64,000 nucleotides of DNA from Synechococcus sp. (lineage in GTDB: Bacteria > Cyanobacteriota > Cyanobacteriia > PCC-6307 > Cyanobiaceae): contig JBJBCN010000002.1 of NCBI GenBank assembly GCA_047285805.1, forward strand, positions 1,248,001-1,312,000, written 5' to 3'. The position numbers and the translations under genes were made by a program. Position 1 is the first letter of the stretch. Every line of letters begins with the position of its first letter. A model generated the notes under the pieces. The model saw only the letters and a program-made list of their open reading frames with translations, did no database searches and was not told the DNA's origin. Of the stretch, positions 7,609 through 26,736 are shown in pieces.

Positions 7609-7621
7609 AACGGAGAGGGTG
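7609..7621. repeat. att direct repeat, distal copy (AACGGAGAGGGTG)
   Basis: Identical to 18060-18072, which overlaps the 3' end of tRNA-Ser; base composition shifts here. Confidence 0.85.
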
Positions 7622-7816
7622 TTTGTCGATTTCATGCTCTGACGCACCTCAGCGAACCAACACGAACTTATTTTCCGAAATCGTCGGCAAACACCCTGCT
7701 ACCATTTCGCGACAGTCCACGAACGCTTGCGAACGACCCTGAGCGACCCATCTCACGACGGAAATCGGTCTGGAGCATTTTGAGTCGTGAGTAATCAGGA
7801 AGGTTCCGCAAGGCAT

Positions 7817-7847
7817 AAAAAGGCAGAGCACCGATGAGTGCCCTGCC
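7817..7847 (-). terminator. Intrinsic terminator downstream of alpA
   Basis: Minus strand GGCAGGGCAC-TCATCG-GTGCTCTGCC followed by TTTTT. Confidence 0.65.
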
Positions 7848-7889
7848 AACAGAGAGTTCTGAGGTATTTAGGTCCCCCACCCATCGGGG

Positions 7890-8087
7890 TCATCTGGATG
7901 CCATGCGGTCTGCCATCCATTTGGTGACCTCCTGTTCGTTCCAGACGACCGTGCGGGAACCCAATTGGATCTGCTTCGGGAAGGTTCCGTCCCTCATGCG
8001 GTCATAGATGGAGGTCTTGCCCATCCCCGTCATCTGAAGCACCTCTGAGATGCGGAGGAAGCGGGGTGCAGTGACTTGCTTAGGCAT
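7890..8087 (-). CDS. AlpA-family regulator / excisionase
   Basis: FLRISEVLQMTGMGKTSIY..M..G.FPKQIQLGSRTVVW, the AlpA pattern. Confidence 0.9.
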   Translation of the reverse strand: MPKQVTAPRFLRISEVLQMTGMGKTSIYDRMRDGTFPKQIQLGSRTVVWNEQEVTKWMADRMASR

Positions 8088-8229
8088 CAGACCGACACCT
8101 CCTCTGGATCAAACAGGAAGTCGGTGAAACGTCCGCCAGTCACAACGGGTGCCGGTTCAGGTTCCTGGGGGGTGGCATCTCTTGTTTATTGTTCGTATAA
8201 GGTCACAGCTTTCTGAAGCCCTTCCCCCC

Positions 8230-8506
8230 CGTCGCCAGCACCTTCTGCTGCTGCTCCGCGAAGGTGTCGGAGATGTATTTGAGGAAGATCAATCCCAGGA
8301 CAAGATGCTTGTATTCGGCGGCATCCATCTGGGCACAGAGTTTGTCCCCTGATGCCCAGAGCACTGCCTTGAAGCCCTTGGCGAGTGGTTCCTTCTTCTT
8401 TCTTGGGTTGCTCGTCTTCGCCTAAGCGGACAGATGCCAGCAACGCATCCAGGTCGGCAGGTGCTTGGACTACGCCTTGAGCGAGAGGGACAACGGGATT
8501 TGTCAT
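8230..8506 (-). pseudogene. hsdM: Type I restriction-modification HsdM N-terminal fragment, frameshifted and truncated
   Basis: After a frameshift near 8400 the alternative frame reads AVLWASGDKLCAQMDAAEYKHLVLGLIFLKYISDTF, the HsdM_N signature; the methylase domain is absent. Confidence 0.8.
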
Positions 8507-8754
8507 TTACTTATTTGATAAGTCATGAAATACCTATGAGGGCAGATCTTTAATAATCCAAACTGGTGGCGAAGAGACGAAGGAATTTCGATTTGTCCCT
8601 GGTCAAATCATTATCCATCCGTCTTCTATGCTTAATTGTGTTGCACCGGTTTTGAGTGTTGTCCGCCACGTATGTGTCGGCTTGATTGAGAGCGATGTAA
8701 AAGCAACTGACGATCTTTCAAAGTTATTCGATATTGATACAGGTGCCCGAGTTT

Positions 8755-9219
8755 TGTTATCCCTCGACAGCACACTATTACAGGTTGGTTTGATCAGACT
8801 TGGGTTAAGTATGATCGGCGCCAAAGCGCCCGAAGCATTGCTGAAAGCTGCAGATTCAGACTTGGCTGAAATTCACGTAGCCCATTTTCAGCATTGGGAG
8901 ATCAAAGACGAAAGAATGACGATTTAAGAGCACAGAATAGAGTGTTTCAAGCACTCGAGGACATCTCAGCAGAAGTCAGAGCAGAAGCGGCGACTATCAT
9001 CGTTTAATCATGCGAAGCGGAAGATGTTAAAGACATGCGCTCATCAGAGAATCAATCGAAGCAGACACTCAGGTAAGCCAGAATACAGCGGCGGGGCCGA
9101 CGAAACTCGAAGCAATCAACAGCATCTAAAGCATAGAAAAAGTAAAATCGACAGAAACAGATGAGTCAACTCAAGCAGTATTCAATGTAGCGATGAATAT
9201 TCTAAGCTGAGATTCATAG
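8755..9219 (+). pseudogene. Decayed 3' half of an E/F-clan HEAT-repeat phycobilin lyase (MpeU/CpeF/MpeV family, most like MpeU)
   Basis: Stitched frames: LQVGLIRLGLSMIGAKAPEALLKAADSD.. / SALGDQ..VFQALEDISAEVRAEAATII* / DTQVSQNTA..KLEAINSI*SIEKVK..DESTQAVFNVAMNILS*. Two frameshifts and stops at 9005, 9127 and 9208. Confidence 0.75.
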
Positions 9220-9320
9220 GAACAACAAGAATGCAGAAAGCCAAGAAGATAATTCAAAAGGAACCGGTCACCATGGAGAGAATTAAGTCAATAACACAAT
9301 CAGAGGCGCGACCTACCAAA

Positions 9321-9337
9321 CTGATAAGAAATGGATA
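9321..9337 (+). promoter_or_regulatory. 17-bp motif CTGATAAGAAATGGATA upstream of fciA (candidate AraC-type operator)
   Basis: 16/17 identical to 12962-12978. Confidence 0.5.
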
Positions 9338-9438
9338 CGAACAAGAGAAAAAGTAATCTCTCAGCAAAATGCAAAATATTAAGCTTGTCACGCACAAGCC
9401 CAGGATAACAATAGAGTATATAAATACGGAGAAGAAGT

Positions 9439-10470
9439 TTGCGAAAAAAACGATCTCGAAATTATGTGTTCTCGGATACGCTTGAGATGGAAGAGTTTTG
9501 CAAAGCACATTTTGAGGAATATCACTCAACATCCAGCTTCGGATGCAATGTAACTCAGTTGAGCACAGGTCTTCTCGAAACAAAGACAACTTGCTCACCA
9601 ATTCAAGATGTACATCTTGAGATTTTCAACTCTAACCAAACGTTACTCTATGAGGAAGAAGCGAACACAAAGTCAGTATCATTCTGCTGGCTTGATAGAT
9701 TGAGTGCTAATGACAAGGCACCACTGACAATAATCAGTGGACACCAAATGACAAGCAATAGCATTGCAGGCTTCAACCGGATAAACAAAACAGGTGGAAA
9801 TATCTGGGATATCATTGGCGCAAATGAAAAGCTCTGCTGCATGAGCTTAAAATGGAATATATTGCAAAAGAGAATCAACAAGTTAAATGCATTTAATGCC
9901 TATGCAAGGCTTGAGGAATGCATCGGCATTGACTCAGATGATGATCCGAGCGTACAGCTCAAAGAGTTATTTAACAACCATTTTTCTGGCAAGTCATCCA
10001 CGAATACAAACTCTTTTTACGATCTAGCAATCATATTCTTAGACAACGAAGACAGTGAATCAACACATGATTTTCATCGATGTGAGTCTACAGACCTAGT
10101 AGAGGATATGGTCAAACTAATTCACGAGGATAGAGCTGGTAGGCCTCCAATAACACTTGATGAAATCACTGAATACCTCAATTCAAGTACAGACTCACTG
10201 AATAGAGCATGCCAGAGAATGTTTAATATGGGTGTGCTTGAGCTTGTCAGAAGAGTACGAATAGAACAGACCCGTAAGTTTTTTTTGAATCCACATTCCA
10301 CAATAGGACTCAAGGAATTTACAAAAAAAAGAGTAGCACTTTACTATGGCTTTAAAGACTGGAAAAAGTTTGAGATGTCTTACGCTCTATATTTCGGGGA
10401 AACTCCTAGTCAAACAATAGATCGGTCAAATAAGACTTTGTATTCATTTAACGCACGGCCTGGAGATTGA
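9439..10470 (+). CDS. fciA: AraC-family chromatic acclimation regulator FciA
   Basis: C-terminal AraC double HTH (ITLDEITEYL..YGF..YFGETPSQT); tandem with fciB next to a phycobilin lyase and unk10. Confidence 0.85.
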   Translation: MRKKRSRNYVFSDTLEMEEFCKAHFEEYHSTSSFGCNVTQLSTGLLETKTTCSPIQDVHLEIFNSNQTLLYEEEANTKSVSFCWLDRLSANDKAPLTIISGHQMTSNSIAGFNRINKTGGNIWDIIGANEKLCCMSLKWNILQKRINKLNAFNAYARLEECIGIDSDDDPSVQLKELFNNHFSGKSSTNTNSFYDLAIIFLDNEDSESTHDFHRCESTDLVEDMVKLIHEDRAGRPPITLDEITEYLNSSTDSLNRACQRMFNMGVLELVRRVRIEQTRKFFLNPHSTIGLKEFTKKRVALYYGFKDWKKFEMSYALYFGETPSQTIDRSNKTLYSFNARPGD

Positions 10471-10473
10471 TAC

Positions 10474-11439
10474 ATGAAAAAATCCATTGAATATAGTGAT
10501 CCACTAGAACTTTCTGAAGAGCTTGCAAAGCTTGGTCAGCTAACGAAAATAACGCAATTAGAAGGCGGCAGTGGTTTATATACCATGCAAGCAGCAAGTG
10601 CAAATAAAGTTGCCCTGGCGGAAATATCTGCAAACAAGACATTATTGTACGAAGGGTGGGGCAATGGGATAACTATTGATTTCAATTGGATTACACCGAA
10701 AGAAAGTAATCAAGTCACCTTTGGTTTTTGTGATGGATTTCAGATGACCAAGAATAGTCTGGCTGGGTTTGGCACCATTAATTCAGTGCCAGGTAATGCA
10801 TGGGGAAAATATGGCAGTGAATGCTCGAGTACTGGTTGCATGATTGAAAAGAAGTTCCTACTTGAATTATTAGAGAGTTGCAAAGCATATGATGGACTCG
10901 AACGACTCACTGGTGATCAAGGTCTTCATTGTAATAATAAAGCTCTAAACCAGCTTAAGCAATTATCTGCGAGAGAAGTATCGTCAGGTATTCGGGACCC
11001 ACAAAAGTATTTTGATCTGGTGATCGCATGCCTTGAAGAACCAATGAATGAGCAAAGTGGTCAGGAAAAAAGACACGTCGATGAATTGAGAGAAATTATA
11101 AATCTTGCACACAGCGAAAGCGCAAGGGAATCCCCTCTATCGTTATCAGAAGTATGCCGATATATAAATACAAGCCAAGCATCTTTGTATCGGATATGTC
11201 AGGAATACTTTGGCATGGGAATTATAGAATTGATGACACATATTAGACTAGAAGAATCCAGGAGAATCATGCTCAACCAAGAAGCGCGTCAAAAACTAAG
11301 GTTGCATTCGATTCGAGATATTGCGATTAGATATGGATTCAGACATCAAGGAAGATATGCAAGGCGCTATTATACTGCATTTGGAGAACTTCCCAGTCAA
11401 ACAATAGAAAGGTCGAGAAGATATAGATTACCAATATAG
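10474..11439 (+). CDS. fciB: AraC-family chromatic acclimation regulator FciB
   Basis: AraC HTH (LSLSEVCRYIN..SIRDIAIRYGFRHQGRYARRY..FGELPSQT); 3 bp after fciA. Confidence 0.87.
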   Translation: MKKSIEYSDPLELSEELAKLGQLTKITQLEGGSGLYTMQAASANKVALAEISANKTLLYEGWGNGITIDFNWITPKESNQVTFGFCDGFQMTKNSLAGFGTINSVPGNAWGKYGSECSSTGCMIEKKFLLELLESCKAYDGLERLTGDQGLHCNNKALNQLKQLSAREVSSGIRDPQKYFDLVIACLEEPMNEQSGQEKRHVDELREIINLAHSESARESPLSLSEVCRYINTSQASLYRICQEYFGMGIIELMTHIRLEESRRIMLNQEARQKLRLHSIRDIAIRYGFRHQGRYARRYYTAFGELPSQTIERSRRYRLPI

Positions 11440-11464
11440 GTGCCTTGCAGCCAGAGAGAATGTT

Positions 11465-12658
11465 CTACAGCTCACGTAAGACTTCCGCGCATGTCCATCG
11501 CAGTGGCTCCCACGTGGATTTTAAAAGTAGTTGTTCAATATCACTACGACATTCCATTAGACCTAGAGTTAAACATCCCCAAGTCGCAGCTATTTTTGAT
11601 TTTGCATACTGCGGAGCTGGCTCCAATAATGATTCCTTTATTATGAAAGATAGTTCTTTTAAGCCGAGTTGAGACACCAAGCAATTTACCTGATAGTGAA
11701 TACCATAATCAGAGCCATGATTTTCCCAAATAGACTTGATTGCATCAGTAACAGTTGAAGCCGGCCAACTCAATAAGGTCTTTGCAGCAAAGTACTGGCG
11801 CTCTTCATCTCTATGCTTGAGGAGATCGCAAACTTTTTCTAAATCAAGTGATGCATCATATGTCTGCATAAAACATAGATTCCGAGAATCGTCCCGCAAA
11901 ATTTGATTGATTAATATTCTTTGGGATTTAGTTTTAATTTTAGGAGTAATCTTGAACGCACTTTTAGCTCTCAACGGCATTGACACCGCTGCTTTCGAAA
12001 GACTTGACAACAGAGAAGGATCTCCAGCATCACCAATATCAATGACGGACGAACGTCTATTTATGACATTCAAATCTTTGAGATGATTTTGAAGGATATG
12101 CAATTTATCCTGGCAGTCTTCAACCCTTATTGAATAAGCTATTGATGCGCCATTAACCAAAATATTTGGATTGCTCTCTTGCTCGTGAATGATGCCAGTA
12201 CACTCATGCAACTCCAAACGAGTGAAGCATTGAATGGCGACACGCTTGAGTGCATCGGAGCCATTTTGAATAATGTTCAAAAGAGATGATTTAAACTGAG
12301 CGTCAAGTGGTATACCAAATTTAATTAGCGTGTCCACAGAATTAACAATCGTCTGCTCGTCACTACTATGCATAGCTTCATAAATGGTTGGCAGAGTACT
12401 AAGGTCGCGACGACGCCCTAGCGCTTCAATAGATTTACGACGTGTAATGGAATCGTAGATATTATTTCTATCCCCGGTAGCCGCTACAACTAATGCATCC
12501 AGAGAATCTCGTGAAGAACAAGCTCCCAACCGTGTTGCAGCTATATATTTGATGCCAGGATTATCAAGAGTATTAATGTTTTGTGAAAGCATCTCAATTG
12601 CTTGCTGTTCACTCATCCATGAGAAAAGATTATCAAATCGTTGTGAACTTGGCACCAT
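11465..12658 (-). CDS. mpeW: MpeQWYZ-family phycoerythrin-II phycobilin lyase, MpeW-type
   Basis: RFDNLF, KYIAATRLG, ITRRK..ALGRR, RRSSVIDIGDAG, HRDE.RQY; residues Y318-G319-I320, Q323, A352-K353 fit the non-isomerising type as I recall it; CA4 island context. Confidence 0.8.
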   Translation of the reverse strand: MVPSSQRFDNLFSWMSEQQAIEMLSQNINTLDNPGIKYIAATRLGACSSRDSLDALVVAATGDRNNIYDSITRRKSIEALGRRRDLSTLPTIYEAMHSSDEQTIVNSVDTLIKFGIPLDAQFKSSLLNIIQNGSDALKRVAIQCFTRLELHECTGIIHEQESNPNILVNGASIAYSIRVEDCQDKLHILQNHLKDLNVINRRSSVIDIGDAGDPSLLSSLSKAAVSMPLRAKSAFKITPKIKTKSQRILINQILRDDSRNLCFMQTYDASLDLEKVCDLLKHRDEERQYFAAKTLLSWPASTVTDAIKSIWENHGSDYGIHYQVNCLVSQLGLKELSFIIKESLLEPAPQYAKSKIAATWGCLTLGLMECRSDIEQLLLKSTWEPLRWTCAEVLREL

Positions 12659-12961
12659 GCAACATGCGTATATTCAATATTTAACAGAAAAATCAATTGA
12701 CAAGTCCAATCTGGTAAGAAGTGACCCGCGCGACGGGCAGATTGATAATTAGCGGACATAGACTTTAAGAAGAATAAACCAACATATTCGGCAAGCACAG
12801 CGGGAGCAAGTTGCCTCCGTATTCAAATCACTGTGCAACTAGTAATCGTATAACTAGATACGGCTGAACTATTTATCAAGGACAAGACCTTTTACGAAAA
12901 AGCTACATTTGACATTAAGATTGCTAACAGGGTGCTGAGCTGTCGATAGGCAAAAACAACC

Positions 12962-12999
12962 CTGATAAGAAATGGACACTTGCTGATAAGATGTGGATA
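12962..12999 (+). promoter_or_regulatory. Tandem 17-bp direct repeat with 21-bp period upstream of unk10
   Basis: CTGATAAGAAATGGACA (12962-12978) and CTGATAAGATGTGGATA (12983-12999). Confidence 0.6.
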
Positions 13000-13014
13000 T
13001 TCCGCTGATGCATC

Positions 13015-13359
13015 ATGTCGCGCGCTGAGTTTATCCGCTTTCTTCAGGTTCTAGAAGAAGACTTGTCATTCAGATCTCTTTTCAAAGAAGCTGAGCCCGA
13101 GGAGATCCTGAAGCTCGCTGATCAACATGGATTTATCTTTTCCGATGAAATAAAAGGGCGTTTTCTTAATCGATGGGCAGGGGTTTACTTCTGCCCATTT
13201 GCCAATGATGTTGGGAGGCTATGCCCCAAGATGGTGCCCGAAGGATTTAGCACTCTCCTCCACTATTCACAGACGACATGCGCAAAAGACGACAAAGTAG
13301 AACGTTTTGAATTCCGGGCTGGAGGCTATTACAAAGGAGTAGAAACTGTAGCTCGATGA
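13015..13359 (+). CDS. unk10: Nif11-like domain protein Unk10 of CA4 islands
   Basis: N-terminal Nif11-like segment (MSRAEFIRFL..EEILKLADQHGFIFS); divergent from the lyase gene in a CA4 context. Confidence 0.75.
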   Translation: MSRAEFIRFLQVLEEDLSFRSLFKEAEPEEILKLADQHGFIFSDEIKGRFLNRWAGVYFCPFANDVGRLCPKMVPEGFSTLLHYSQTTCAKDDKVERFEFRAGGYYKGVETVAR

Positions 13360-13368
13360 AGGAAACAA

Positions 13369-13548
13369 ATGAAATCAAGAAGCATCTGCTTATCCATCAG
13401 CAAACGCAACCAAGACATGGTGGATGTAATCGACGAATATGCGGACATGCTTGGTATGTCAAAGGCATGTGCCGTGTTCCACATCATCAAGGACTACAAC
13501 CGACTCAAACTCAAAGAACGCATCAGAGAACTGGAAGGTGTCTCATGA
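13369..13548 (+). CDS. 59-aa ribbon-helix-helix protein, FciC-like (not in ORF track)
   Basis: MKSRSICLSISKRNQDMVDVIDEYADMLGMSKACAVFHIIKDYNRLKLKERIRELEGVS; alternating beta-strand, helix-GMSK-helix; AAGGA upstream; 9 bp after the unk10 stop. Confidence 0.7.
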   Translation: MKSRSICLSISKRNQDMVDVIDEYADMLGMSKACAVFHIIKDYNRLKLKERIRELEGVS

Positions 13549-13977
13549 GGCAGTTTCCTTGTTACTTGCAGAGGCAATGACAGAAGTATTCTCGGCAATC
13601 TTAATAATGGCAATCATGGACTCAAGAATAAACCGAGACACAAGCACAACTGCAATTGGAATAAAGATAAGACCAAGAACGCCTAGGAGTTCGGAATATC
13701 CAGAATATGGTTGAGCAATAATCAAAGCAAAAGGAAAACAAATCACCCCCATCACCACAAGGGAGACAGCAAACATTATTAAAAGGAAATAAATTGCGCT
13801 GACAAACTTCCTTAGAACAAAGAAGTTAAATCTAATATCAGTAAATAGTATCAAGAAAAGACCCTTAAATCCAGAGGGAATCGATACAGGAGAAGGACGC
13901 TTATAGGATGCGATTGTGGTCCAAATGGCAACCACAATTCCAACTATACAAGCAATGATTGCAATGCCTTCACTCAC
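13543..13977 (-). CDS. Membrane protein, DUF4282-like
   Basis: F.D..F..F, TM helices and C-terminal RFILE....IKIAENT pattern. Confidence 0.65.
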   Translation of the reverse strand: MSEGIAIIACIVGIVVAIWTTIASYKRPSPVSIPSGFKGLFLILFTDIRFNFFVLRKFVSAIYFLLIMFAVSLVVMGVICFPFALIIAQPYSGYSELLGVLGLIFIPIAVVLVSRFILESMIAIIKIAENTSVIASASNKETAS

Positions 13978-14148
13978 AGTTAGTGAATCAAACTCTCTAG
14001 GAACCTAGGAACAAGACTGCTAGGGGGAAAAATACTACAGATTCTTGTAACAAGCAGATTAAGAAATCAATACTAAATCCTAATGAATGAATTTTTTAAT
14101 TCAAACGAAAGCACCAAGAACTCTTATATATCCGTGAAATTAAACCAT

Positions 14149-14481
14149 TTAAGGTGACGATGACCTAGCATACTTAACAAATACGATAAAGCGCAAACCA
14201 GTAATTAGAGCAGACCTTACTTTACTACTATCTAATCTCTTAATAGTGACCATAGAAGACAGAAAGAGTGCTACTAAAGATATTGAAGCGCAAACTCTAT
14301 TCGTTAAGAGGAATGGTTCTCCTTGAATCGCCGCCGAAACAGATTGAAAAGGAACCCCCCACACCAAAAAGTGAGTCACTAGCATCAATAATGGACATAA
14401 AGTCAAAAGGATTAAAGAAAAGTTTTGCATTTTAGTCGTCAAATCTTCCATAATTTTAGAAAATAGCACTTCGCATGTCAA
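14149..14481 (-). CDS. Hypothetical membrane protein (paralog of 14590-14937)
   Basis: Hydrophobic; shares KMQN and VAL.LSS.VT..RLDS.K.RSAL.T with its neighbour. Confidence 0.55.
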   Translation of the reverse strand: MTCEVLFSKIMEDLTTKMQNFSLILLTLCPLLMLVTHFLVWGVPFQSVSAAIQGEPFLLTNRVCASISLVALFLSSMVTIKRLDSSKVRSALITGLRFIVFVKYARSSSP

Positions 14482-14589
14482 GTCTATTAATTAGGTGAAA
14501 TTAGTATTCCAAAAAACGCATCAATAGTCCGAATAATTCCTGAGTTCAAATCCAATACAAAACAAGAGAAATCAAGATAATAAAGAGAT

Positions 14590-14937
14590 TTACCAATTCG
14601 CTAACGGATTAGAACTCACCTTCAAATAAAAGACAAAGTTTGCAGCACAATAAGCAGTTAGTAGAGCGGACCTTATCTTTTCACTATCCAATCTATTGAC
14701 AGTTACTATAGAAGACAATACAAGTGCCACAAAAGACATCAAGGTGATGATATAATTTGACAAGTTCATTAGTTCGATTACTTTATTGGCAACAAAAGAA
14801 TCAGGATAATGGATAATTGCGCTCCATATCACATTGTAAGAAAGTATCGTGAAAAGCACTTGAGCAATCAAAATCGCAAGCGCGCAATTTTGCATTTTCT
14901 TGCCATGATTAAGGAAATCGTACCAAATGAAATTCAC
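14590..14937 (-). CDS. Hypothetical membrane protein (paralog of 14149-14481)
   Basis: Three hydrophobic segments; motif shared with the adjacent ORF. Confidence 0.6.
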   Translation of the reverse strand: MNFIWYDFLNHGKKMQNCALAILIAQVLFTILSYNVIWSAIIHYPDSFVANKVIELMNLSNYIITLMSFVALVLSSIVTVNRLDSEKIRSALLTAYCAANFVFYLKVSSNPLANW

Positions 14938-15006
14938 GTGTCAATGCTTGCCGTTCTTGTTTAAATAAACGCAGGCACAAACAAACTAAAATATTGGGGG
15001 TGCAAT

Positions 15007-15144
15007 ATGAACGGGATATTTGATTCAGTAGAGATGAAGATGCTGGAAGAACTTTCTAAGAGAGGTGCTGTTGTCGGAAAGAAGTATTCCGATAAAAAGA
15101 AGTATCTGAAAGAACTGGTCCGTCGTCTTTACCTGAACCTCTGA
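15007..15144 (+). CDS. Small basic hypothetical protein, 45 aa (not in ORF track)
   Basis: MNGIFDSVEMKMLEELSKRGAVVGKKYSDKKKYLKELVRRLYLNL; helical and protein-like. Confidence 0.5.
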   Translation: MNGIFDSVEMKMLEELSKRGAVVGKKYSDKKKYLKELVRRLYLNL

Positions 15145-15267
15145 TTCGTTCGTGAATCACCAGTTGGTTATACGAAAATCGGTTTTTATATGAGACCCAA
15201 AGTCCAATCTATATGCGGCACCTTTCGGTCAAGCAATATCAAAATCAACTTTCCGATTACAGGTCTC

Positions 15268-15304
15268 AAAAAAAATCCCCGCAGGAAAACTGGTTCCTGT
15301 GGGG
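15268..15304 (-). terminator. Intrinsic terminator, minus strand
   Basis: CCCCACAGGAA/TTCCTGCGGGG stem (one mismatch) followed by A and T8. Confidence 0.6.
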
Positions 15305-15361
15305 TCGAATACATAGAAGATGAGGGTCGAACAACGGACAACCCTTACCTTCTCAGTGAAT

Positions 15362-15395
15362 AACAGCAGGAGTTGCTGCCCTGCTGTTTTTTTTT
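15362..15395 (+). terminator. Intrinsic terminator, plus strand (possibly bidirectional)
   Basis: AACAGCAGG/CCTGCTGTT stem running into a T tract. Confidence 0.65.
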
Positions 15396-15405
15396 GGGTC
15401 AGAAC

Positions 15406-16026
15406 TCAACCGAAACCCACACCAGAGGTTTCTGTGGTCTCCTCTTCTTGCTGTCCAAAACGGAAAGCATTTAGTTCGTCCTTGCGTCGTCTCCAACCAT
15501 GTAGGAGAGCAACTCGTTCATTCGGATAGTGCTCCAGTGATTTCTCACGGGTCTGAAGTTCGAGAAGACACTTTTCCTTTGACTGCTTCCGAAGTTCGTC
15601 CTTGCGTTGTTGGACTCGGACTTTCCACTCGTCAGTGGTTTCATCTCCCTTCTTCGTGAGGGAGGGAGCAGGAGACGGACCACCTTCCTCTCCTAACCAT
15701 TCATACCCGTCATAACGATGACCAAACTGCTTAGCAGCAAGTGTGATTGTGTCGTCTTCCCACTGCTGGGTTTCTTCGTTCCAGACCTGATAAAGTTCTT
15801 CCAACTTTTTCATAGGTGTAATACGAAGACGACTGAATATAGGAACACACTTCTCTTGGTCTTCGTCGTAAATAAACGGAAGGTGATAAGCAATAAAGTC
15901 CTGAATCTCCTCTAAGGTCATATATGGAGAACGAACCCAACGAATATCCATATGGTCGGAGTAGTCAAGGAAGTAATACTCCTTGTTGGGGTCAAAGGTT
16001 GTTTCACCAGAAATAAGTTGAGACAT
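15406..16026 (-). CDS. Hypothetical protein of the integrase module
   Basis: 206-aa ORF co-oriented with alpA and the integrase; GGAGG RBS upstream. Confidence 0.75.
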   Translation of the reverse strand: MSQLISGETTFDPNKEYYFLDYSDHMDIRWVRSPYMTLEEIQDFIAYHLPFIYDEDQEKCVPIFSRLRITPMKKLEELYQVWNEETQQWEDDTITLAAKQFGHRYDGYEWLGEEGGPSPAPSLTKKGDETTDEWKVRVQQRKDELRKQSKEKCLLELQTREKSLEHYPNERVALLHGWRRRKDELNAFRFGQQEEETTETSGVGFG

Positions 16027-16119
16027 AAGGATTCCTCCTATAAAGTGAATGAAAATATGTTTGTTCTCGGTGTTCTCTCACCGATAGGGTTTTGAGTCAG
16101 TTTATTGACTATCGATTAC

Positions 16120-16311
16120 TCAACCAAGAGCAGCACATACCTTTTGAGCACACCAATCTTCGACCTGGGACTTCACCCAGACGACAGAACGAGCGCCCAA
16201 AGGAACTTGCTTTGGAAAATCTCCCTGCTCCATTAGTCGGTAAATGGAGGATTTAGAGAGACAAGTAATTTCTTTGACATGTTTCAGTCGCAGAAAATGT
16301 GAATGGACCAT
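16120..16311 (-). CDS. AlpA-family regulator / excisionase
   Basis: FLRLKHVKEITCLSKSSIYRLM..G.FPKQVPLGARSVVW. Confidence 0.9.
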   Translation of the reverse strand: MVHSHFLRLKHVKEITCLSKSSIYRLMEQGDFPKQVPLGARSVVWVKSQVEDWCAQKVCAALG

Positions 16312-16580
16312 GTGTTTGCGTGTTTCATAAGGTTTATTGATTACAACAATCTCGGAGTTAGATTAGTCAGGTAGGGGGCGTCTGACTTAGAAGACCCTTA
16401 TCGGGTTAGTGATTATTTGATTTTGAGGCAGTCGGTCGGTTTGCTCTGTTCGTTTATCTTGACTACTATAACCCTGGGGACTCGACCCGTCGGTTCCCAG
16501 TGGACACTTTGAGCAACTAACCTTCCATTCATACCAGAAGGTCTCACGAAGTCCTACTAACTCAAATACACCTCAAATCG

Positions 16581-17876
16581 TCAGACCTTCATGCCCTGAG
16601 CAAGCAAGGCATCACACCAAGCAACCATGAACAATCTTCGTTCTTTTAGGAAGTCATGTCGGTCATATATGCCCTGAATCCGGTCCTTCACCTTCCATCC
16701 TTGTTGGAGTCGAATGACCTTCTCATCGAATCCCAGTTCCTTCTGCCCATAGGTCAGAACACAAGTCCGAACTCCATGCCCCACGAAGTCCCCCTTGTAT
16801 CCGAGGTCGATGAAGTGGTTGTTGATGGATGACGGGTTGATGTGCCTGGACTGAGTGCGAGGAGAGGCAAAGACGAACTCGGTTCCTCCATTCACCTTCT
16901 CCATCTCCCAGAGCAGGTCCTTGATGGGTTGAGTCAGAGGCACCAGGTGGTTCTTCTCTCCGTCATCCCAGGTCTTCATACGGGTCGCAGGAACCTTCCA
17001 GAGTTCCTCTTCCATATCAACCTCCTCCCACTTCATCCCTGAAATCGCACCTACCCGCAGACCAGTCATGAAGGTCAGCAAGCAAGCACCACGGGTTGAG
17101 AACTGACCATTCGGTTCGTTGCGGTCGAACACCTCAAAGAACTCAGGGAGTTGTTCCCAGAAGGGGAACGGATGGTGCTGGACCTGATGGGTCTTCTTGT
17201 CCTTGGGACTGAACACCGAACGCATCAACGGGTTCTGTCCGTCCCTTATCCATCCCTTATTGACCGCATTCTCAAAGACCCCTTTCAGGACCATCTGCTG
17301 TTTGCTTGCTGAGGAGGGTGCCTTCTTCCTGACTCTCCCCAGGTATTCGGTCATTAGTTCCCGAGTGGTCTTCCCACCTGGGTGCCTGTATTCCCAGGAG
17401 AAGTGCTCCACGGGTGTCTTCGCACCGAACTCAGGCAGAACCTGATTCCAGAGGAGGTTCCTGTATTCCCTCTTCCCCCTCTCGTTTGCCGAGGTCCAGT
17501 CAGAGAGAAAGGACTCACATGCCTGTTCCAGGGTTGGAGAGGTCGTCTTCTGAACCAGGAGTGCCTGCTGCTCTCTCTTTCTCTCCCTGGGGTCTTTGCC
17601 GTTCTCTCTGCTCCATGTCCTGATTGCGGACCATTCCTCCTTTGCCTCTCTCAGAGACCACTTCCCAGTTCCCTTCCCATAAGGACCTATTCGGACCTCA
17701 ATCCACTTCCCTCCGTTGCTGGGACTACGGGGAGGGAACCGAGTGATGCCGATAAAGGACTTCCCACCCCCCTTGCTGATTGGTTCGACGACCACATACA
17801 ACGAATCACCGCAACTCTTCTTCTGTCGTTTAGTCCCAGGGGGTAGAGCACGGACTTGGGAGTCAGTAAGAGGCAT
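16581..17876 (-). CDS. Tyrosine recombinase, P4-like integrase with N-terminal arm-binding domain
   Basis: MPLTDSQVRAL N-terminus; TGLR, RMK, HGVR, QGW, IY catalytic positions; adjacent to tRNA. Confidence 0.93.
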   Translation of the reverse strand: MPLTDSQVRALPPGTKRQKKSCGDSLYVVVEPISKGGGKSFIGITRFPPRSPSNGGKWIEVRIGPYGKGTGKWSLREAKEEWSAIRTWSRENGKDPRERKREQQALLVQKTTSPTLEQACESFLSDWTSANERGKREYRNLLWNQVLPEFGAKTPVEHFSWEYRHPGGKTTRELMTEYLGRVRKKAPSSASKQQMVLKGVFENAVNKGWIRDGQNPLMRSVFSPKDKKTHQVQHHPFPFWEQLPEFFEVFDRNEPNGQFSTRGACLLTFMTGLRVGAISGMKWEEVDMEEELWKVPATRMKTWDDGEKNHLVPLTQPIKDLLWEMEKVNGGTEFVFASPRTQSRHINPSSINNHFIDLGYKGDFVGHGVRTCVLTYGQKELGFDEKVIRLQQGWKVKDRIQGIYDRHDFLKERRLFMVAWCDALLAQGMKV

Positions 17877-17884
17877 TTCAGGAT

Positions 17885-17946
17885 TCCCCCAACACGGATA
17901 TTTTCCCCCAACACACCCCCTTTATCCCCCAACATTTCCCCCAACA
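17885..17946. repeat. Four copies of TCCCCCAACA between integrase and att (putative arm-type sites)
   Basis: Exact copies at 17885, 17904, 17925 and 17937. Confidence 0.7.
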
Positions 17947-18061
17947 CTTTTTCGGAAAACCCTGGTGTCTCATGGGACGAACCAGGACCATGAACCACTA
18001 AGAAAGTCCCTCACCGCAACGGGTTTGGGACATTCAGAGACCTTTCAGGACTTTTTCAGAA

Positions 18062-18146
18062 CGGAGAGGGTGGGATTCGAACCCACGGAAGGTTGCCCTT
18101 CAAACGATTTCGAGTCGTTCGCTTTCGACCACTCAGCCACCTCTCC
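18062..18146 (-). tRNA. tRNA-Ser(CGA)
   Basis: GGAGAGGTGGCTGAGTGGTCGAAAGCG-AACGA-CT-CGA-AA-TCGTT, long variable arm, GGTTCGAATCC, CCTCTCCG. Confidence 0.97.
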
Positions 18147-18182
18147 AGGCGACCCGGCCAGTGTACGGATCAAGCCGCCAGC

Positions 18183-20423: not shown

Positions 20424-21256
20424 TGTTGTTGCCGGACCTGGGTTTACTGGGGTCTCGAAAGCTAGAGCAGGTTGGAATGGGTAGTTCACAAGTCGTGACC
20501 CAACTCGCTCAAAGGACTTTCAACCCAACCGAGTTGGGTAGAGGTTGGGTCGATTCTCGCTAATCGCCGACCAACCCAACTATCTGGGAGGAAGGCGGAG
20601 ACACAAAGGCAGACCCCCGTGCAGCCAAGCGAAGGCAAAACGCGGACATCAAGCGCTCCCGAAAGGGTCCTGAAGGCACGCTGGGCGCTTCACCTCAAGC
20701 AGTCCAGAAGAGCGCCCATGGGGGTTTGTCGCCCATGCACATAGCTAATACTGCTTCAGAAACTGGGGCCGGAAACCCTCTGAAGCTGAGGCTTTTCCAA
20801 TTCACAGCAATGGTCGAGAGTCAGCAAAGATTTCGTAGGTCGGTCGAATAGAGCGACTGACCTTCTCTGAGGGCTCTTGAGTTATTTCAAGACTCAGCTT
20901 AGTCGTTGCAAGCTCAACCTCTATAGCCAATTGCCCCAACCGAGCACACAGGAGTTTTTGAGTTCGTGATGATATGTTTGACATGGATATCGTGCAATTG
21001 GCGTAAAGCCATAAATATGGTTTGACGATTGCGCAAAGACTTTACCTATCCAAACATAAGCATATGGTTAGGTGAAGCATTTGCTTGGCTCAGCCTGATT
21101 GGCGGGGGGTTGTGTGGTCCTCTTCTGGGTATGGGCCTCCAGATAAAATAAATCCAACGTGCCAGAGCTAGCAAATCCCATACGTGTATGGAACAAGGCG
21201 AGCAGACGCCACAGCTCAACTCTGTCAAGATTGGAGAGGAAATGCTTCTTGGCTCA

Positions 21257-21646
21257 ATGGCAGCTTTCGACGACAGCACCCCCTTTATGCTCCTGGCCCG
21301 CATCCAAGTGAAGGAGGGACGTGTTGATGAGTACTTGGAGTTGGCACGCGTCACCGATGCCGCAGTTCAAGCGAGCGAACCCGGAATGCTGCACCACACA
21401 TTCGATCAAGATCCAGATGATCCCAAGGGATTCGTCTGGTCAGAGGTCTATGCGAACGATGCAGCCTTTGCCGCTCATGTCTCAAACCCTCCCGTTCAGG
21501 AGTATCTGCAGAAGCATGCAGAACTTGGCGATGGCTTCAGCGTTGAGGTCTATGGAACTGTCGGCGACGAGTGCAAGGCTCTGATGGAGTCATTCGGACT
21601 ACCGCTACGAATCTTCCGAACGAAGCTGGGTTACAGCAGGGTCTGA
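21257..21646 (+). CDS. Antibiotic biosynthesis monooxygenase (ABM) family protein
   Basis: ARIQVKEG, EPGMLHHTF, FVWSEVYANDAAFAAH. Confidence 0.8.
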   Translation: MAAFDDSTPFMLLARIQVKEGRVDEYLELARVTDAAVQASEPGMLHHTFDQDPDDPKGFVWSEVYANDAAFAAHVSNPPVQEYLQKHAELGDGFSVEVYGTVGDECKALMESFGLPLRIFRTKLGYSRV

Positions 21647-21879
21647 TTGAACTGCAAACAGCACCTGGATACTGTGAACTGAGCAAAGCCATAAACATTG
21701 AGGACACGCTCGAGCTTTGCTCGCCATGATCCGAGAGGGAGGAGGTCATTCCGCTCATCCTCCTCAACTCTCCCCGCTACTGAGCAGTGGGGCAGTGGGC
21801 TGTATATCGGCAAAAACGAAGCGTGTAAATCGCTGGTTCGCCATGCGCAATTGTCACCACATTGCCTCGTCAATGTCTT

Positions 21880-22134
21880 CTACTGAGGCAAAGATGTCTT
21901 TGGCTCTCTGTAGCTGCCATTGCAGTGGACGACGATTTCATCAAGCAGGTATTTGGAGTTCTCCTAGATATGAGACTTGAAGCAATGGTTGAAGTACTTA
22001 GCCTCTTCTTCAACAGCGTGCATTCTTTGATTGATCTAGATAACGTTCACCATTCCAATCGCAATATAGATGGTACCAGCCGTTGCCAGCACAGGGTAGA
22101 GGTGGGCGTTGATGAGATCACGTGCGTTGTTCAT
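21880..22134 (-). pseudogene. Small picocyanobacterial hypothetical protein with two in-frame TAG stops
   Basis: MNNARDLINAHLYPVLATAGTIYIAIGMVNVI*INQR..AKYFNHCFKSHI*ENS..VVHCNGS. Confidence 0.5.
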
Positions 22135-22606
22135 AGTTTTTTTTGTAGGCGTAATCTTTTTCTAGCCAGCTTCGGGGGATCGACCCATCTCCGTCTGTCG
22201 GGTATGACGATCAGAGGTGGATCAGCAGAAAACTGCAATAACGGGCTTACCGGCCCCCGCTTGATGGATCGCAAGCCGTAAACAGGTGTTTCTACTGATG
22301 CCAGTTCCTGATGGCCCAACTATTACGGGGTCCGACACCTAGAAGGCCTGCCTTCATTCTGACGGGTTAGGTGCCGAGGGGGCGGTGGGGACACCGCCCT
22401 TCTCGGTGCCAGCTTTCCTGGCGAAGATGGGGAGCAAATGGAATGCAATCCATGCAGTACCAATTCGCTAATCCAAGTTAGCGCCACAAATCCGATGCGC
22501 TCTGTCGTTTCTCGGCCTCAGGGAATGCCAGGCTTCAAGAAGCCACCCGTGAATTGACAGTTGCTGCAGACATGAGTGGCATTCAGGAGAAAGCTGCCTT
22601 TTCGAA

Positions 22607-22894
22607 ATGAATACATGCATCCCACTTCCAGTAATCACTACCATCATCGCCTGCATCTTTGCCATACACCTGCTTGCGAATGAGCACATGAACCCAATCC
22701 CGCGGAAACTAAAGAAAGCATTATCATGGTCATTAATTGCATTTGTCCTATTAGTAAATACTGGCACTTTTGCTGGATTTTATGTCAGCAAGCTGATTGG
22801 CTGGTGGGAGGATGATTGGCAGACAGTTGCCTTATCTATAATTGCGGGCATAGGTTCATGGTATTTCCTTTTTCTAGCATTTGGACTGCTATAG
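22607..22894 (+). CDS. Hypothetical membrane protein
   Basis: 95 aa with three hydrophobic segments. Confidence 0.55.
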   Translation: MNTCIPLPVITTIIACIFAIHLLANEHMNPIPRKLKKALSWSLIAFVLLVNTGTFAGFYVSKLIGWWEDDWQTVALSIIAGIGSWYFLFLAFGLL

Positions 22895-23338
22895 TCAATG
22901 GCAGGTAAGTCAGGACAGGTTTAAGCAGTATCCAGCTACCTGAGGATCATGTAAGCAGCGCTTCACCCCGCTCTTATCAAGTGACTGAGAAATCACCAGC
23001 GCACGACTTACTTCAGATAGGCGACATCGAACCTGTGGCTAACGGCCGCCCTTCTCAATGGGTTGGGTTGCTTCCACCCAACACTGGTTTCGAATCTCGT
23101 AGACCAGCACAGAGCCGACGCAGTCGCTGTGAGCGCAAACGTCTGTGGCTAGTCATCCCATGGAGGTTTTTCTTGGCTGGTCGCTGGTGGGTCATTTACG
23201 GCTCGCTGCTTTGAGAACCTCAGGCCGAGTGCTAAGTCCCACACACAACGCCAAAGGGGTAACCAAAGACACGTCACCGCTTAAGCCCTGACTCCACTAT
23301 TGACAGGAGACCTTCGAATGGGTTTCAAGGGAGAACCT

Positions 23339-23366
23339 GAGGCGGGGTGGAACCCGCCTCTTTTTT
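23339..23366 (+). terminator. Intrinsic terminator
   Basis: GAGGCGGG-GTGGAA-CCCGCCTC followed by T6. Confidence 0.7.
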
Positions 23367-23709
23367 ATGTCTCCCTGGCCACTGATGGTTTGCTTCAGCA
23401 GACGCTGCTGCCAATCCTGCACCAGCTAGTCCAGGCGGGTGAGCACAGCTGGGTTCAATGGAAGCCGCACAGTAACCGGCCAATGCCTAGCTGATGCCGC
23501 CAAACGGATACCCTCTATGAGACAACTGGAGTCCTTGTGAGTACGCGAAGCGGCTACGGAGATTTGGACAGGAGCCTCGCTAGAGCCAAGCGAGACAAAT
23601 GAAGCAGCCTGGTAGTGGATGCAATCGTTATGTGTTCTCAACCCGGGGAAGCAAAGTCCTGTGGTTGCCTTGTTGTGGGTAGATAGCGGAAGTATCAACC
23701 ACAAGCGCA

Positions 23710-24423
23710 TCAGGCAAAACCTCTTCCCACAGCGTTAATCTTCTCTTTTGCATCTAAGAATTCAACTTTATCTGTGGCGGGATCGTAGATTGTGAATTTA
23801 CAGCCGCTGCCAATTCCGATAATCGTTCGTTTTGGCACGCTGTGATCAGATTCATGCTTAGCAGCATGATCAACAACCTGAGAGTGCACTACCCCTCCAG
23901 AAAGTTCAATAGTGAACTGCTTGTGACTCCGCGCTGTAAATAGACGATTGACATCCAAGCGCGTAAGCCGGTCCAGAAGAATCAGAGGTGATGTCTTCTC
24001 AGTAAGCTGATCGCCAACATCGGCGGAGCTTCCATGGATCAAGGCGCAGTCTAGTTCTATAAATCCAAACTGAAGATTTGCCAACCATGAAACATGACTC
24101 TGATCAACAGAGGAAACAAGTCTATGCACAAGATCTTTACCTTTCTGTTGCCTCAGCAGGTCTGCCTTGCGATCACCTCGGTAACCAAGCTCTGCCAAAA
24201 GCTGATCCTCCCACCAGCCATAGATGCAATCAGGTGCGATGTCATTATGTTTTGGGTTTCGAATTCGTTCAAGCAATGCATTGCAGTTTGAACTTGCTCC
24301 GACTAAGTCTCCTAGAATAAAAAGATTAGCAACTCCCCTTTTGTGCTTAAGGTGACGTTGGATCTGCTCATAAGTTTCAAGGTCACCATTAAGACCGCTA
24401 ACGAGTGCCCAGCGCTCCATCAT
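23710..24423 (-). CDS. Metallophosphoesterase-like protein with degenerate metal ligands
   Basis: LGDLVG and IHGS retained, but the DxH motif reads SGLNG; paralog of the upstream gene. Confidence 0.8.
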   Translation of the reverse strand: MMERWALVSGLNGDLETYEQIQRHLKHKRGVANLFILGDLVGASSNCNALLERIRNPKHNDIAPDCIYGWWEDQLLAELGYRGDRKADLLRQQKGKDLVHRLVSSVDQSHVSWLANLQFGFIELDCALIHGSSADVGDQLTEKTSPLILLDRLTRLDVNRLFTARSHKQFTIELSGGVVHSQVVDHAAKHESDHSVPKRTIIGIGSGCKFTIYDPATDKVEFLDAKEKINAVGRGFA

Positions 24424-25235
24424 CGCTCACACACATGAGAAGCATCGTCGGCACGCTCGGCATACTCAAAGCCATGGCCAAGTCTCCATGCAAATATAGC
24501 GGGCAGGCCGGCTTCTATAATTGCCTTACAAGTCTTCTGGACGTCGTAACCAACCTCTCGAATTGTCACTGATCCAGTTTCTTCATTGTGGATCACGTAC
24601 GTGGCCTTTGTATTGCCATGTCGAGGCTCTCCAACAGAGCCGGCGTTCACTATTCGACGTAGGGGTATCTCCATCTCAGCTGTTAGCGACTCATTGTGCT
24701 CAGGCATCTGGACTTTAACTTGAATACTTCCACCACTTAACTCGCGCACATAGGGTTGATGGGTATGACCACAGAATAGAGTTTCAGCGCAAGCAGTCTC
24801 GACACGTTCAAGCGCTGCAAAAGCACTCATATCAGGCAGAAGATATTCATGCTGACTGTTTGGACTACCATGTACAAAAAGAAGCTTATTGCGACGGAAA
24901 GACATTGGCAAAGCCGCAAGATAGCTCTTGTTATCGTCGGTTAAGACTGCATCTGTCCAACGATGTGCACGATGACCTCGCCTCTCTGCCAGCTGAGATG
25001 GGTAACTGCAGTCACAAGCATTGAGGCCGTCAATAATGTCCTCATCCCAACAACCCTGGCAGGATGGTATTTTTCTCTGTCGAAGTAACTCAATCACTTC
25101 ATTGGGCTGAGGGCCATACCCAACGAGATCCCCGAGGCATGTAATTCTATTAATACCCTGGGAGTCAATGTCCTTGAGAACTGCCTCGAATGCAGCAAGG
25201 TTTGCATGTAGACAGGAAATGACAGCGTGATTCAT
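24420..25235 (-). CDS. Metallophosphoesterase family protein
   Basis: SCLHAN, CLGDLVGYGP, VHGSP, CGHTH, NAGSVG.PR. Confidence 0.9.
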   Translation of the reverse strand: MNHAVISCLHANLAAFEAVLKDIDSQGINRITCLGDLVGYGPQPNEVIELLRQRKIPSCQGCWDEDIIDGLNACDCSYPSQLAERRGHRAHRWTDAVLTDDNKSYLAALPMSFRRNKLLFVHGSPNSQHEYLLPDMSAFAALERVETACAETLFCGHTHQPYVRELSGGSIQVKVQMPEHNESLTAEMEIPLRRIVNAGSVGEPRHGNTKATYVIHNEETGSVTIREVGYDVQKTCKAIIEAGLPAIFAWRLGHGFEYAERADDASHVCER

Positions 25236-25248
25236 TGGATTCAGAATA

Positions 25249-26016
25249 CTATGAATGAGATTGTTGCCGTGTCCGCAGTTGTTGCTGTTGTACTTCTAGA
25301 GCATCGTCAGAGATAAGGCAGTCGTTAATCGTTGACTTGATACCTTCTTGATTGAGGTCTCTACCCTGAACCACAAGTTCAGATACGCAACTTGGCCTAC
25401 CATTTGGTGCAGATAACTGATTGAGTGGAAGGAATTGAGAGCCTTGCTGGCTTACCATCCAGTTGAAGTAAAAGGATCTACCGTCGGGCAGATTCATTAA
25501 TGCCTTAGCTCGGTAGACATCACCATATGCACCATTAACTAATTCAAACCAAAAGGCATTGAGACTGTCAGGATCCCAGACTTCACCGCCAAGGTCAAGG
25601 TTCAAGGATTCTAAGACACTGAATTCGAGCGTATCATTCGTTGGTAGTTCCAGGTCTCGTCCGAAATGAAGATAGGCGGTTGGCTTAACATATAGTTTAT
25701 TCAACTGATCCCTTACACCTTCACTAAATGCATCAATGCCTGTTTTCTCGGGTGGACGGAATTCTTGCAGCTCAATTATCAGAAGCTGATTATCCTCTTC
25801 CCTACACGTAAGCAATGAGGATTGAAGGTTGGGCACTTGATCTTGCAGCCAGGCTTGGTCGATCCCAGAGTCATTGCCTTGTTCAAGTTTGAGGCAGCTT
25901 TCTCCAGCAAGGCGCATATAAGCCCTGGAACCTTGGTGTTCCTGGAGAGCCTTCAGTGCCCATGCGGTTTTTCCGCAACCAGGAGGCCCTGAAAGCAATG
26001 TGACCTTAGCCCCCAA
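25249..26016 (-). CDS. CobW/COG0523-like protein (Walker A plus CobW_C-like C-terminus)
   Basis: SGPPGCGKT; VYRAKA..ELVVQGRDL; no CxCC motif seen. Confidence 0.7.
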   Translation of the reverse strand: MGAKVTLLSGPPGCGKTAWALKALQEHQGSRAYMRLAGESCLKLEQGNDSGIDQAWLQDQVPNLQSSLLTCREEDNQLLIIELQEFRPPEKTGIDAFSEGVRDQLNKLYVKPTAYLHFGRDLELPTNDTLEFSVLESLNLDLGGEVWDPDSLNAFWFELVNGAYGDVYRAKALMNLPDGRSFYFNWMVSQQGSQFLPLNQLSAPNGRPSCVSELVVQGRDLNQEGIKSTINDCLISDDALEVQQQQLRTRQQSHS

Positions 26017-26024
26017 AATCCTTC

Positions 26025-26047
26025 ACAGGAATGGTAATCGTTCCTAT
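26025..26047. promoter_or_regulatory. Zur/Fur-type inverted repeat
   Basis: ACAGGAATGGTAATCGTTCCTAT; core matches AATGATnATCATT with 2 mismatches; adjacent to a minus-strand CATAAT -10-like hexamer. Confidence 0.55.
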
Positions 26048-26159
26048 TATGGCCTAGAGTGATGATGAGCGTCTAGGGCGCAACCGCTGAGTGGCTATGA
26101 ATTTGAACAGTCCATAACGCCAACTCTCGCTAACGTTTAGGCGGTAGGGGTTTTTCGTT

Positions 26160-26656: not shown

Positions 26657-26736
26657 AATTCATCTTGCTAGAGGGTATAAGCATGCGCGCAAGGCAATAA
26701 CTAAAGATTAAATCTTTAGGTGGGACTTTCGGCTGA

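Follow-up and report, generated by a model that had tools for sequence, protein, structure and literature searches.

The window examined here is a stretch of 64,000 nucleotides of the Synechococcus sp. contig JBJBCN010000002.1 (assembly GCA_047285805.1, positions 1,248,001 to 1,312,000). Within it lies a 10.45-kb element, flanked by two 13-bp copies of the 3' end of a tRNA-Ser(CGA) gene, which carries a CA4-B island, one of the two island types of type IV chromatic acclimation (CA4). This island is probably a domesticated import: the element delivered CA4-B, the lyase MpeW would have replaced the native MpeY, the ends of the element would have eroded, and a one-site colour switch becomes possible. 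What is new is the combination of a known CA4-B island with a known kind of tRNA-Ser integrative element, carried across genera and kept by a host of pigment type 3a with an imported mpeQ and a lost mpeY. Delivery is well supported and present mobility is doubtful, while the switch phenotype is a prediction from the genes. Positions without a contig prefix follow the numbering of the window; C1, C2 and C3 are contigs of the host genome (G000), and G and L codes denote compared genomes and loci.

The CA4-B island and the scar of its capture

The island holds four intact genes. The AraC-type regulator genes fciA (9439..10470, + strand) and fciB (10474..11439, +) encode proteins which are, respectively, 81%–83% identical to canonical CA4-B FciA and 79%–85% identical to members of the main CA4-B clade, inside which FciB falls in the tree. 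They are followed by mpeW (11465..12658, −), encoding a HEAT-repeat phycoerythrobilin (PEB) lyase with HRDE, Y318 and G319, and by unk10 (13015..13359, +), with a Nif11 domain. The lyase nests in the MpeW clade at 91% identity to its nearest relative, and departs at 7 of the 252 columns invariant in 12 canonical MpeW proteins. In this enzyme family G319 marks a lyase and V319 an isomerase (PMC9705338). Identification as MpeZ, MpeY or MpeQ was ruled out by the tree and by G319, and the assignment of the module to CA4-B, made in a preliminary description of the window, therefore holds.

With its tandem fciA-fciB encoding AraC-type helix-turn-helix proteins, mpeW on the opposite strand, unk10 downstream, and neither fciC nor mpeZ in the block, the cargo is, judged from its sequence, a true CA4-B island nested among marine Synechococcus alleles. 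It departs from the published islands in location, as it lies at a tRNA-Ser site with an mpeU remnant and not between mpeU and cpeZ in the rod region. The stretch 8766–13364 aligns at 77%–85% DNA identity with mpeU-fciA-fciB-mpeW-unk10 of marine Synechococcus, and the cargo alleles differ by 9%–20% from any known copy. In the 44 other genomes of the host genus, a good number of which are incomplete, FciA was not found. FciB occurs in 33 of 400 other genomes of the family; inspection of 29 of these 33 loci gave 13 CA4-B and 16 CA4-A islands, and mpeU adjoins fciA in all 13 CA4-B loci. The fciAB pair is far from every sampled allele (synonymous divergence, dS, 0.7–1.3), whereas mpeW and unk10 are close to one allele subgroup (dS 0.2–0.5), for which fciAB gives 0.7–0.9; the block is therefore a mosaic or its donor is unsampled.

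The captured block begins inside mpeU and ends 5 bp past unk10, where homology to the donor loci stops (around 13364) and these continue into cpeZ. Such limits give the direction of movement, from the rod region into the element. On the left, a fragment of an Fe(II)/2-oxoglutarate dioxygenase gene (8628..8765, +; NF003974, E 1e-6; paralogue at C2:916495) is fused at the capture junction to the decayed 3' half of mpeU (8766..9231, +), a scar of capture from the phycobilisome rod region with 2 frameshifts and 3 premature stops. Neither fragment was in the preliminary description, which also lacked an HsdM fragment and the degenerate distal arm sites discussed below.

The element and its target

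The repeat AACGGAGAGGGTG stands at 7609..7621 (distal core, attL) and at 18060..18072 (proximal core, attR, overlapping the 3' end of the tRNA), with no third copy in the 2.37-Mb genome; its chance recurrence within 20 kb was computed at about 2e-4. These coordinates agree with those given earlier for identical 13-bp repeats enclosing fciA-fciB, the lyase and unk10, one of them overlapping the 3' end of the tRNA-Ser gene. The target is tRNA-Ser(CGA) (18061..18147, −). At the same tRNA site in related genomes, the distal copy measures 13 bp in G004 and L026, and 19 bp in G019. An open tyrosine integrase gene (16581..17876, −; 431 aa; Pfam Phage_integrase and Arm-DNA-bind_3) has R274, H367, R370, W393 and Y404 at positions which we take to be catalytic, and is joined by two genes for AlpA-family excisionases or regulators, one at 7890..8087 (−; PF05930, E 2.6e-21; PHROG excisionase) and one at 16120..16311 (−; Pfam and PHROG matches). 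Thus, the uninterrupted integrase and AlpA genes reported in the interval were found again. The cargo was also rightly described as richer in AT than the host: guanine-plus-cytosine (GC) content is 43.7% in the element and 40.7% in the CA4-B block, against 63.5%–64.9% in the host flanks. Such low GC is weak evidence of import, because canonical CA4 islands also have about 40.6% (PMC3877281).

The check proposed for an empty tRNA-Ser site in relatives gave a clear answer. In G009, a complete genome, and in G016, a conserved 80-aa gene runs through a single core into the tRNA and the 10.45 kb are absent, while in G019 and G004 different elements occupy the same site. The integrase family was found in 15 of 400 other family genomes searched, adjoining tRNA-Ser(CGA) at 13 of the 15 loci, and its named relatives at 86%–93% identity include marine Synechococcus. 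Thus, an integrase, att repeats derived from the tRNA 3' end and an empty site in relatives are all in place, while the matching arm repeats at both ends expected of a tRNA-targeting tyrosine-integrase element are wanting.

A type 3a host with a dead mpeY and an imported mpeQ

In the protein cluster of the flanking 80-aa gene, the named members are Vulcanococcus, a genus of subcluster 5.2 (PMC5902973); from this one marker the host appears to have Vulcanococcus-like kin in subcluster 5.2. A scan of IlvC gave no placement. The host is a picocyanobacterium of coastal type. Its phycobiliprotein genes lie outside the window, as the preliminary description had it for phycoerythrin rod genes, and the rod region (C3:112961-137997) contains mpeBA, cpeBA, a fused open reading frame (ORF) with two Nif11 domains, and a CpeF-like lyase that is 63% identical to that of G009 and 52% identical to MpeU. 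The host CpeB and MpeB carry His141, and neither mpeC nor an intact mpeU was found in the host genome. By the criteria of PMC8995045, this rod region is, on its gene content, of pigment type 3a. Type 3dB, with mpeQ in place of mpeY, mpeC and mpeU present and Leu141 in CpeB, does not describe it. Of the genes that were to be sought elsewhere in the genome, mpeBA and mpeQ were thus located, and mpeU was not.

The native mpeY (C3:126419-127607, L002), a gene of the G319 type located upstream of mpeB, has become a pseudogene: 5 in-frame stops and no fewer than 2 frameshifts break its reading frame. At the same place in G009 the gene is intact. By contrast, an intact mpeQ was found at C2:193028-194242. 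Its product matches the MpeQ structure 7MC4 at 632 bits, versus 280 for the lyase of the window, and has Y318-V319-T320 with the catalytic residues kept. This gene sits in a 3.43-kb insertion (C2:191592-195018, L003) just upstream of era, beside a 382-aa tyrosine recombinase with relatives in only 2 of 300 family genomes, and the insertion is absent from all four closest relatives. The nearest relative of the host MpeQ is that of MIT S9452, with 94% protein identity and 91% DNA identity including about 265 bp upstream (62 synonymous and 26 non-synonymous codon differences). The FciA and FciB of MIT S9452 are only 51% and 57% identical to those of the window, and mpeQ and CA4-B therefore came from different donors. 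In the host, MpeW is the only PEB lyase (G319) of its family still intact, and both members of the MpeQ/MpeW pair are present. With the native mpeY dead and mpeQ imported separately, the island reads as a domesticated replacement and no longer as a passenger.

Another locus of the genome (C2:781184-782017, L004) holds an intact FciC orthologue, 59%–72% identical to CA4-A FciC, divergent from a decayed unk10 and with neither fciAB nor mpeZ nearby. It is a CA4-A-like relic, unmatched in the four closest relatives.

Proposed replacement, possible switch and the evidence of maintenance

MpeY attaches PEB to Cys83 of MpeA in other pigment types. In this host MpeY has been lost and no G319 enzyme other than MpeW is intact, so that MpeW has most likely taken its place. 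The history is read as follows. An element with a tyrosine integrase targeting tRNA-Ser(CGA) picked up the segment from mid-mpeU to the end of unk10 in the type-3dB rod region of a marine Synechococcus, and is now found at the tRNA-Ser gene of a type 3a host with Vulcanococcus-like kin. Of the captured segment, the part from mpeU decayed while fciA, fciB, mpeW, unk10 and the upstream boxes stayed intact, and a separate insertion brought mpeQ from another donor. MpeW would have taken over from MpeY in attaching PEB to MpeA Cys83, with FciA and FciB driving mpeW through conserved boxes. The takeover would have made the cargo valuable and the ends dispensable, and the distal arm sites would then have eroded. 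With MpeQ competing for MpeA Cys83, the parts for a one-site, low-amplitude blue/green switch are at hand.

Maintenance of the block is consistent with this history. Over its 481 bp the mpeU remnant has collected 5 lesions, whereas the four genes have none in 3,537 bp, against about 37 expected at the rate of the remnant. Pairwise ratios of non-synonymous to synonymous divergence (dN/dS) are 0.10–0.13 for fciA, 0.09–0.12 for fciB, 0.12–0.23 for mpeW and 0.03–0.07 for unk10. The four-gene block has apparently been kept under selection in the type 3a host.

In CA4-B strains, MpeQ puts phycourobilin, and the green-induced MpeW puts PEB, on MpeA Cys83 (bioRxiv 10.64898/2026.10.21.760676; PMC10904595), and MpeW and MpeZ compete with the rod-region enzyme for Cys-83 of alpha-phycoerythrin-II (PMC10904595). 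As the host lacks mpeU and mpeC and has His141 in both CpeB and MpeB, it is not expected to achieve full 3dB acclimation. Without mpeU and mpeC, the other two CA4 sites besides Cys83 (PMC3877281) may stay fixed, and any shift should therefore be small.

The strongest rival, to which we give nearly even chances, differs from domestication with a switch solely in phenotype. It holds that MpeW merely substitutes for MpeY and fixes a green-specialist pigmentation, with mpeQ silent, too weak or unable to act on a 3a-type MpeA. The same missing genes and His141 residues speak for it, as does the host MpeA, which is only 82%–85% identical to the MpeA of types 3c and 3dB, together with the published 3a hosts which carry CA4-A and do not acclimate. 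However, mpeQ has kept its upstream region, its catalytic residues and an open frame. Both regulators and the paired boxes before unk10 have also been preserved, and constitutive replacement would need neither.

Several points weigh against domestication as set out above. Acclimation is lacking in type 3a strains with an acquired CA4-A (PMC8995045), and also in WH8109 despite its intact CA4-B (bioRxiv 10.64898/2026.10.21.760676). Because of these failures, the chance that the host cells truly acclimate to light colour, as its genes suggest they could, is put somewhat below even. The pairwise dN/dS values mostly reflect the time before capture, and mpeW is somewhat relaxed, with a private pN/pS (the corresponding ratio for polymorphism) of 0.30 versus 0.10–0.18 among the references. 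Loss of the native mpeY may have preceded the arrival of the element, for instance at a time when the now-relic CA4-A island was present. Metagenomic copies match the integrase at about 99% identity, which makes it look more recent than the decay seen in mpeU and mpeY, and the element may be a mosaic whose modules differ in age. Finally, the arm-site role of the repeats considered below is assigned from their position.

A conserved candidate site for FciA/FciB

The 16-bp motif TGRTAA-N5-GGAYA, which is conserved in the donor alignments, is a candidate FciA/FciB site. One copy stands upstream of fciA (9322..9337, +); three more stand in the mpeW-unk10 spacer (12743..12999, +), at 12743 in the mpeW promoter region and at 12963 and 12984 before unk10, the last two spaced 21 bp. 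These are the only 4 matches in the host genome, all within the CA4-B block, where about 1.9 would be expected genome-wide at random. As the pattern was defined on CA4-B, the CA4-A loci serve as an independent test, though the loci are mutually related and hence not fully independent. Each of the 16 CA4-A loci contains a single match to the box, located between fciB and fciC (shuffled sequences gave a mean of 0.1 of 16), and the box is present in 12 of 13 CA4-B loci. It is absent from three type-3c-like loci and from the rod region of G009. Thus, the conserved box marks both CA4 island types, and may be bound by FciA/FciB. A literature search found no published description of the motif, which the PNAS papers on MpeQ/MpeW and FciA/FciB, or supplements, may already contain. 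A scan for sigma-70 promoters stayed at chance level (15 matches versus 12.4 expected).

Present mobility of the element

The preliminary description had seen in the element a possible vehicle for the horizontal spread of light-colour acclimation. For the past this stands, given the empty sites, the absence of FciA from the 44 other genomes of the genus and the alleles nested in marine Synechococcus. For the present it fares worse, and we regard it as improbable that the complete 10.45-kb element continues to excise and to spread CA4-B from one picocyanobacterium to another. The open integrase, the two AlpA genes and the perfect 13-bp cores argue for such activity. So does the size of the integrase cluster, with 191 members, together with two marine metagenomes whose pieces match the integrase at about 99% identity, one of these metagenomes having almost no cover on the host flanks (depth being a rough guide), and a 97% identical 1.4-kb piece in the Joint Genome Institute contig L142. 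In the two metagenomes, a joint from 13544 to 15007 gives the same backbone without the second cargo described below, and the backbone therefore circulates and swaps cargo.

The ends of the element and the distribution of its cargo point the other way. Upstream of the integrase stand four copies of the arm word TGTTGGGGGA (17885..17946, −), and each relative likewise has 3–4 copies of a 10-bp word upstream of its own integrase. Arms were examined at 11 related loci, 5 of which had the distal att within the retrieved DNA, and G004 was added by eye. All six complete relatives carry two distal copies of their own word with 0–1 mismatch, at 80–81 and 92–93 bp from the distal core in the 5 scored loci. 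The distal end of the window element can still be aligned with those of its relatives, but its best match to its own arm word (7684..7705, −) has 3 mismatches and lies 72 bp from the core instead of 80–93. In arm-dependent integrases, loss of arm sites should impair excision. Excision should by this reasoning be impaired here through the lost distal arms, and the element is probably grounded, excising rarely or never.

No excision joint was present in the contigs of two runs that may be the source of this DNA (X1 and X2), although contigs drop rare variants; of the 19 runs listed, 4 were covered. The MpeW and FciB clusters have one member each. Searches of viral contigs returned no relative of the integrase, MpeW or FciB; MpeW was likewise absent from phages, and in plasmids FciB had only distant AraC matches. 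CA4-B pieces in the two marine metagenomes stop matching at 13364 and continue into cpeZ-type DNA, and no replication, packaging or capsid gene was found in the element (Pfam, NCBIfam, PHROGs). No second element carrying CA4-B was found in the searches made. Tandem accretion with an internal att copy found no support, as neither a third core nor an arm word was found inside the element.

That the block is a neutral passenger, or arrived so recently that decay has not yet begun, seems very improbable. The near-identical wild integrase does suggest recent movement, and the lower dS of mpeW and unk10 relative to fciAB would allow parts of the block to be recent, but the mpeU piece next to them has by now been destroyed, whereas all four genes and all four boxes survive, and the native paralogue has become a pseudogene. 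An assembly artefact, or contamination from a co-cultured Synechococcus, is scarcely credible: although the cargo alleles belong to another genus, a single contig spans 6000–20000 without differences in each of two runs (possibly the source of this DNA itself), the junctions coincide exactly with the att core of the relatives, the alleles are 9%–20% off any known copy, and the contamination score is 0.11.

Relation to known systems and significance

The island has the gene set, order and orientation (fciA fciB > < mpeW, unk10 >) of the CA4-B island of marine Synechococcus (Humily 2013, PMC3877281; Grebert 2022, PMC8995045), and shares with it MpeW G319, the lack of fciC and mpeZ in the block and a GC content of about 40%, its alleles falling inside the main CA4-B clade. 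It differs in lying outside the rod region on an att-flanked element, in a type 3a host without mpeU, mpeC or a native mpeQ. According to both papers, CA4-B is always in the rod region, between mpeU and cpeZ/unk10, by a route described as unknown, and Humily 2013 reports no CA4 in subcluster 5.2. Our literature search found no report of CA4-B on an integrative element or in subcluster 5.2, supplements and most subscription papers being outside that search.

The element resembles the tycheposons and cryptic integrase-excisionase elements of Prochlorococcus (Hackl, bioRxiv 10.1101/2020.12.28.424599) in its tRNA-adjacent tyrosine integrase, partial-tRNA repeat at the far end, excisionase-like genes, adaptive cargo and patchy presence. 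In contrast, its target Ser(CGA) is not among the seven tRNAs listed there (Ser being TGA), its cargo is a light-colour module and its distal arms have decayed. As no primase, helicase, small terminase (terS) or major capsid protein (MCP) gene was found with Pfam, NCBIfam or PHROGs, it is no tycheposon in the strict sense, and by its gene content matches the "cryptic" class of that work.

Two further cases are comparable. The type 3aA strains MVIR-18-1, WH8016 and KORDI-49 likewise combine a type 3a rod region with an acquired CA4 island outside it, but theirs is CA4-A and they do not acclimate, whereas here a complete CA4-B meets a dead mpeY and an imported MpeQ. The tRNA-Phe "tycheposon" insertions and CA4-A at the 5' end of the rod region (PMC8995045) were also proposed to link integrative elements with pigment-gene traffic; there the link to CA4 was drawn from position, while here a whole CA4 island lies within an att-bounded element with a donor mpeU scar.

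In the Tara Oceans data, 41.5% of the reads from Synechococcus belonged to CA4 cells (bioRxiv 10.64898/2026.07.10.737521). Against the published view that CA4-B never leaves its site, the present genome shows it mobilised by site-specific integration across genera, and forms an exception to mpeW as a marker specific to type 3dB. It also provides a natural strain for asking which genes suffice for acclimation and whether MpeW and MpeQ act on a 3a-type MpeA, while the conserved box is a direct candidate DNA target for tests of FciA/FciB. Judged from the genes, light-colour tuning may have been assembled from borrowed parts.

A bolder reading goes further, and is rather unlikely as a whole. By it, a type-3a cell of subcluster 5.2 would have become an acclimater, a minimal one-site CA4, through separate imports of CA4-B and mpeQ from two Synechococcus lineages with mpeY discarded; the element family, having taken up the island along with flanks from mpeU and unk10, would be the missing carrier that can hand CA4-B to type 3c cells by homologous recombination, and the box would be the FciA/FciB operator. 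In the 3c loci (L113, L116-L118), mpeU stands directly beside unk10.

Other features of the element, its relatives and the genome

The remaining genes of the element belong to its backbone and a second cargo. A 106-aa ORF (8186..8506, −) overlaps an HsdM N-terminal fragment (8203-8364), and homologues of each occur in the related G299 element. A 59-aa backbone ORF (13369..13548, +), similar to ribbon-helix-helix proteins by eye only and without a Pfam match, has 39 homologues, one in the element of G197. The second cargo (13545..15006, −; 36% GC), which is absent from the wild backbone copies, encodes a DUF4282 protein and two paralogous small hydrophobic ORFs. A 206-aa ORF (15406..16026, −) matched no family, gave no usable match in the Atlas, and showed no similarity to primases, helicases or capsid proteins.

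Elements at the same tRNA in G004 (L061), G019 (L060) and G299 (L277) bear restriction-modification-like genes, and in G299 a second integrase lies directly behind the distal att, that is, a tandem integration. In a marine Synechococcus metagenome-assembled genome (MAG), a broken MpeZ/MpeQ-like lyase fragment (L077:5593-6069) lies beyond glyQ, near but outside its tRNA-Ser element. A CA4-B rod region and a Synechococcus-type integrase (L010, L078) occur in MAGs labelled Crocinitomicaceae and Methanobacteriota, whose contigs are probably mis-binned.

Within the window, a second low-GC island follows glyQ (about 20450–34930) and is absent from G009 and G019; it contains, labelled by eye, two metallophosphoesterase-like ORFs, a metY/metA-like pair, a GAF-domain ORF and integrase fragments. 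In the rod region, a gene labelled by eye as ferrochelatase-like (C3:116228-117403) lies between rpcB and pebB, in DNA that aligns with G009. Outside the core rod region there are two extra phycoerythrin-type linker genes. One (C3:111766-112626), here labelled mpeE-like, is 64%–68% identical to stand-alone linkers of two marine genomes, and no orthologue was found in G009; the other (C2:1319659-1320600) has at most 45% identity to anything in the five genomes searched. The small contig C1:1-6832 (L005), with 45% GC, holds long ORFs resembling, by eye, tetratricopeptide-repeat proteins and glycosyltransferases.

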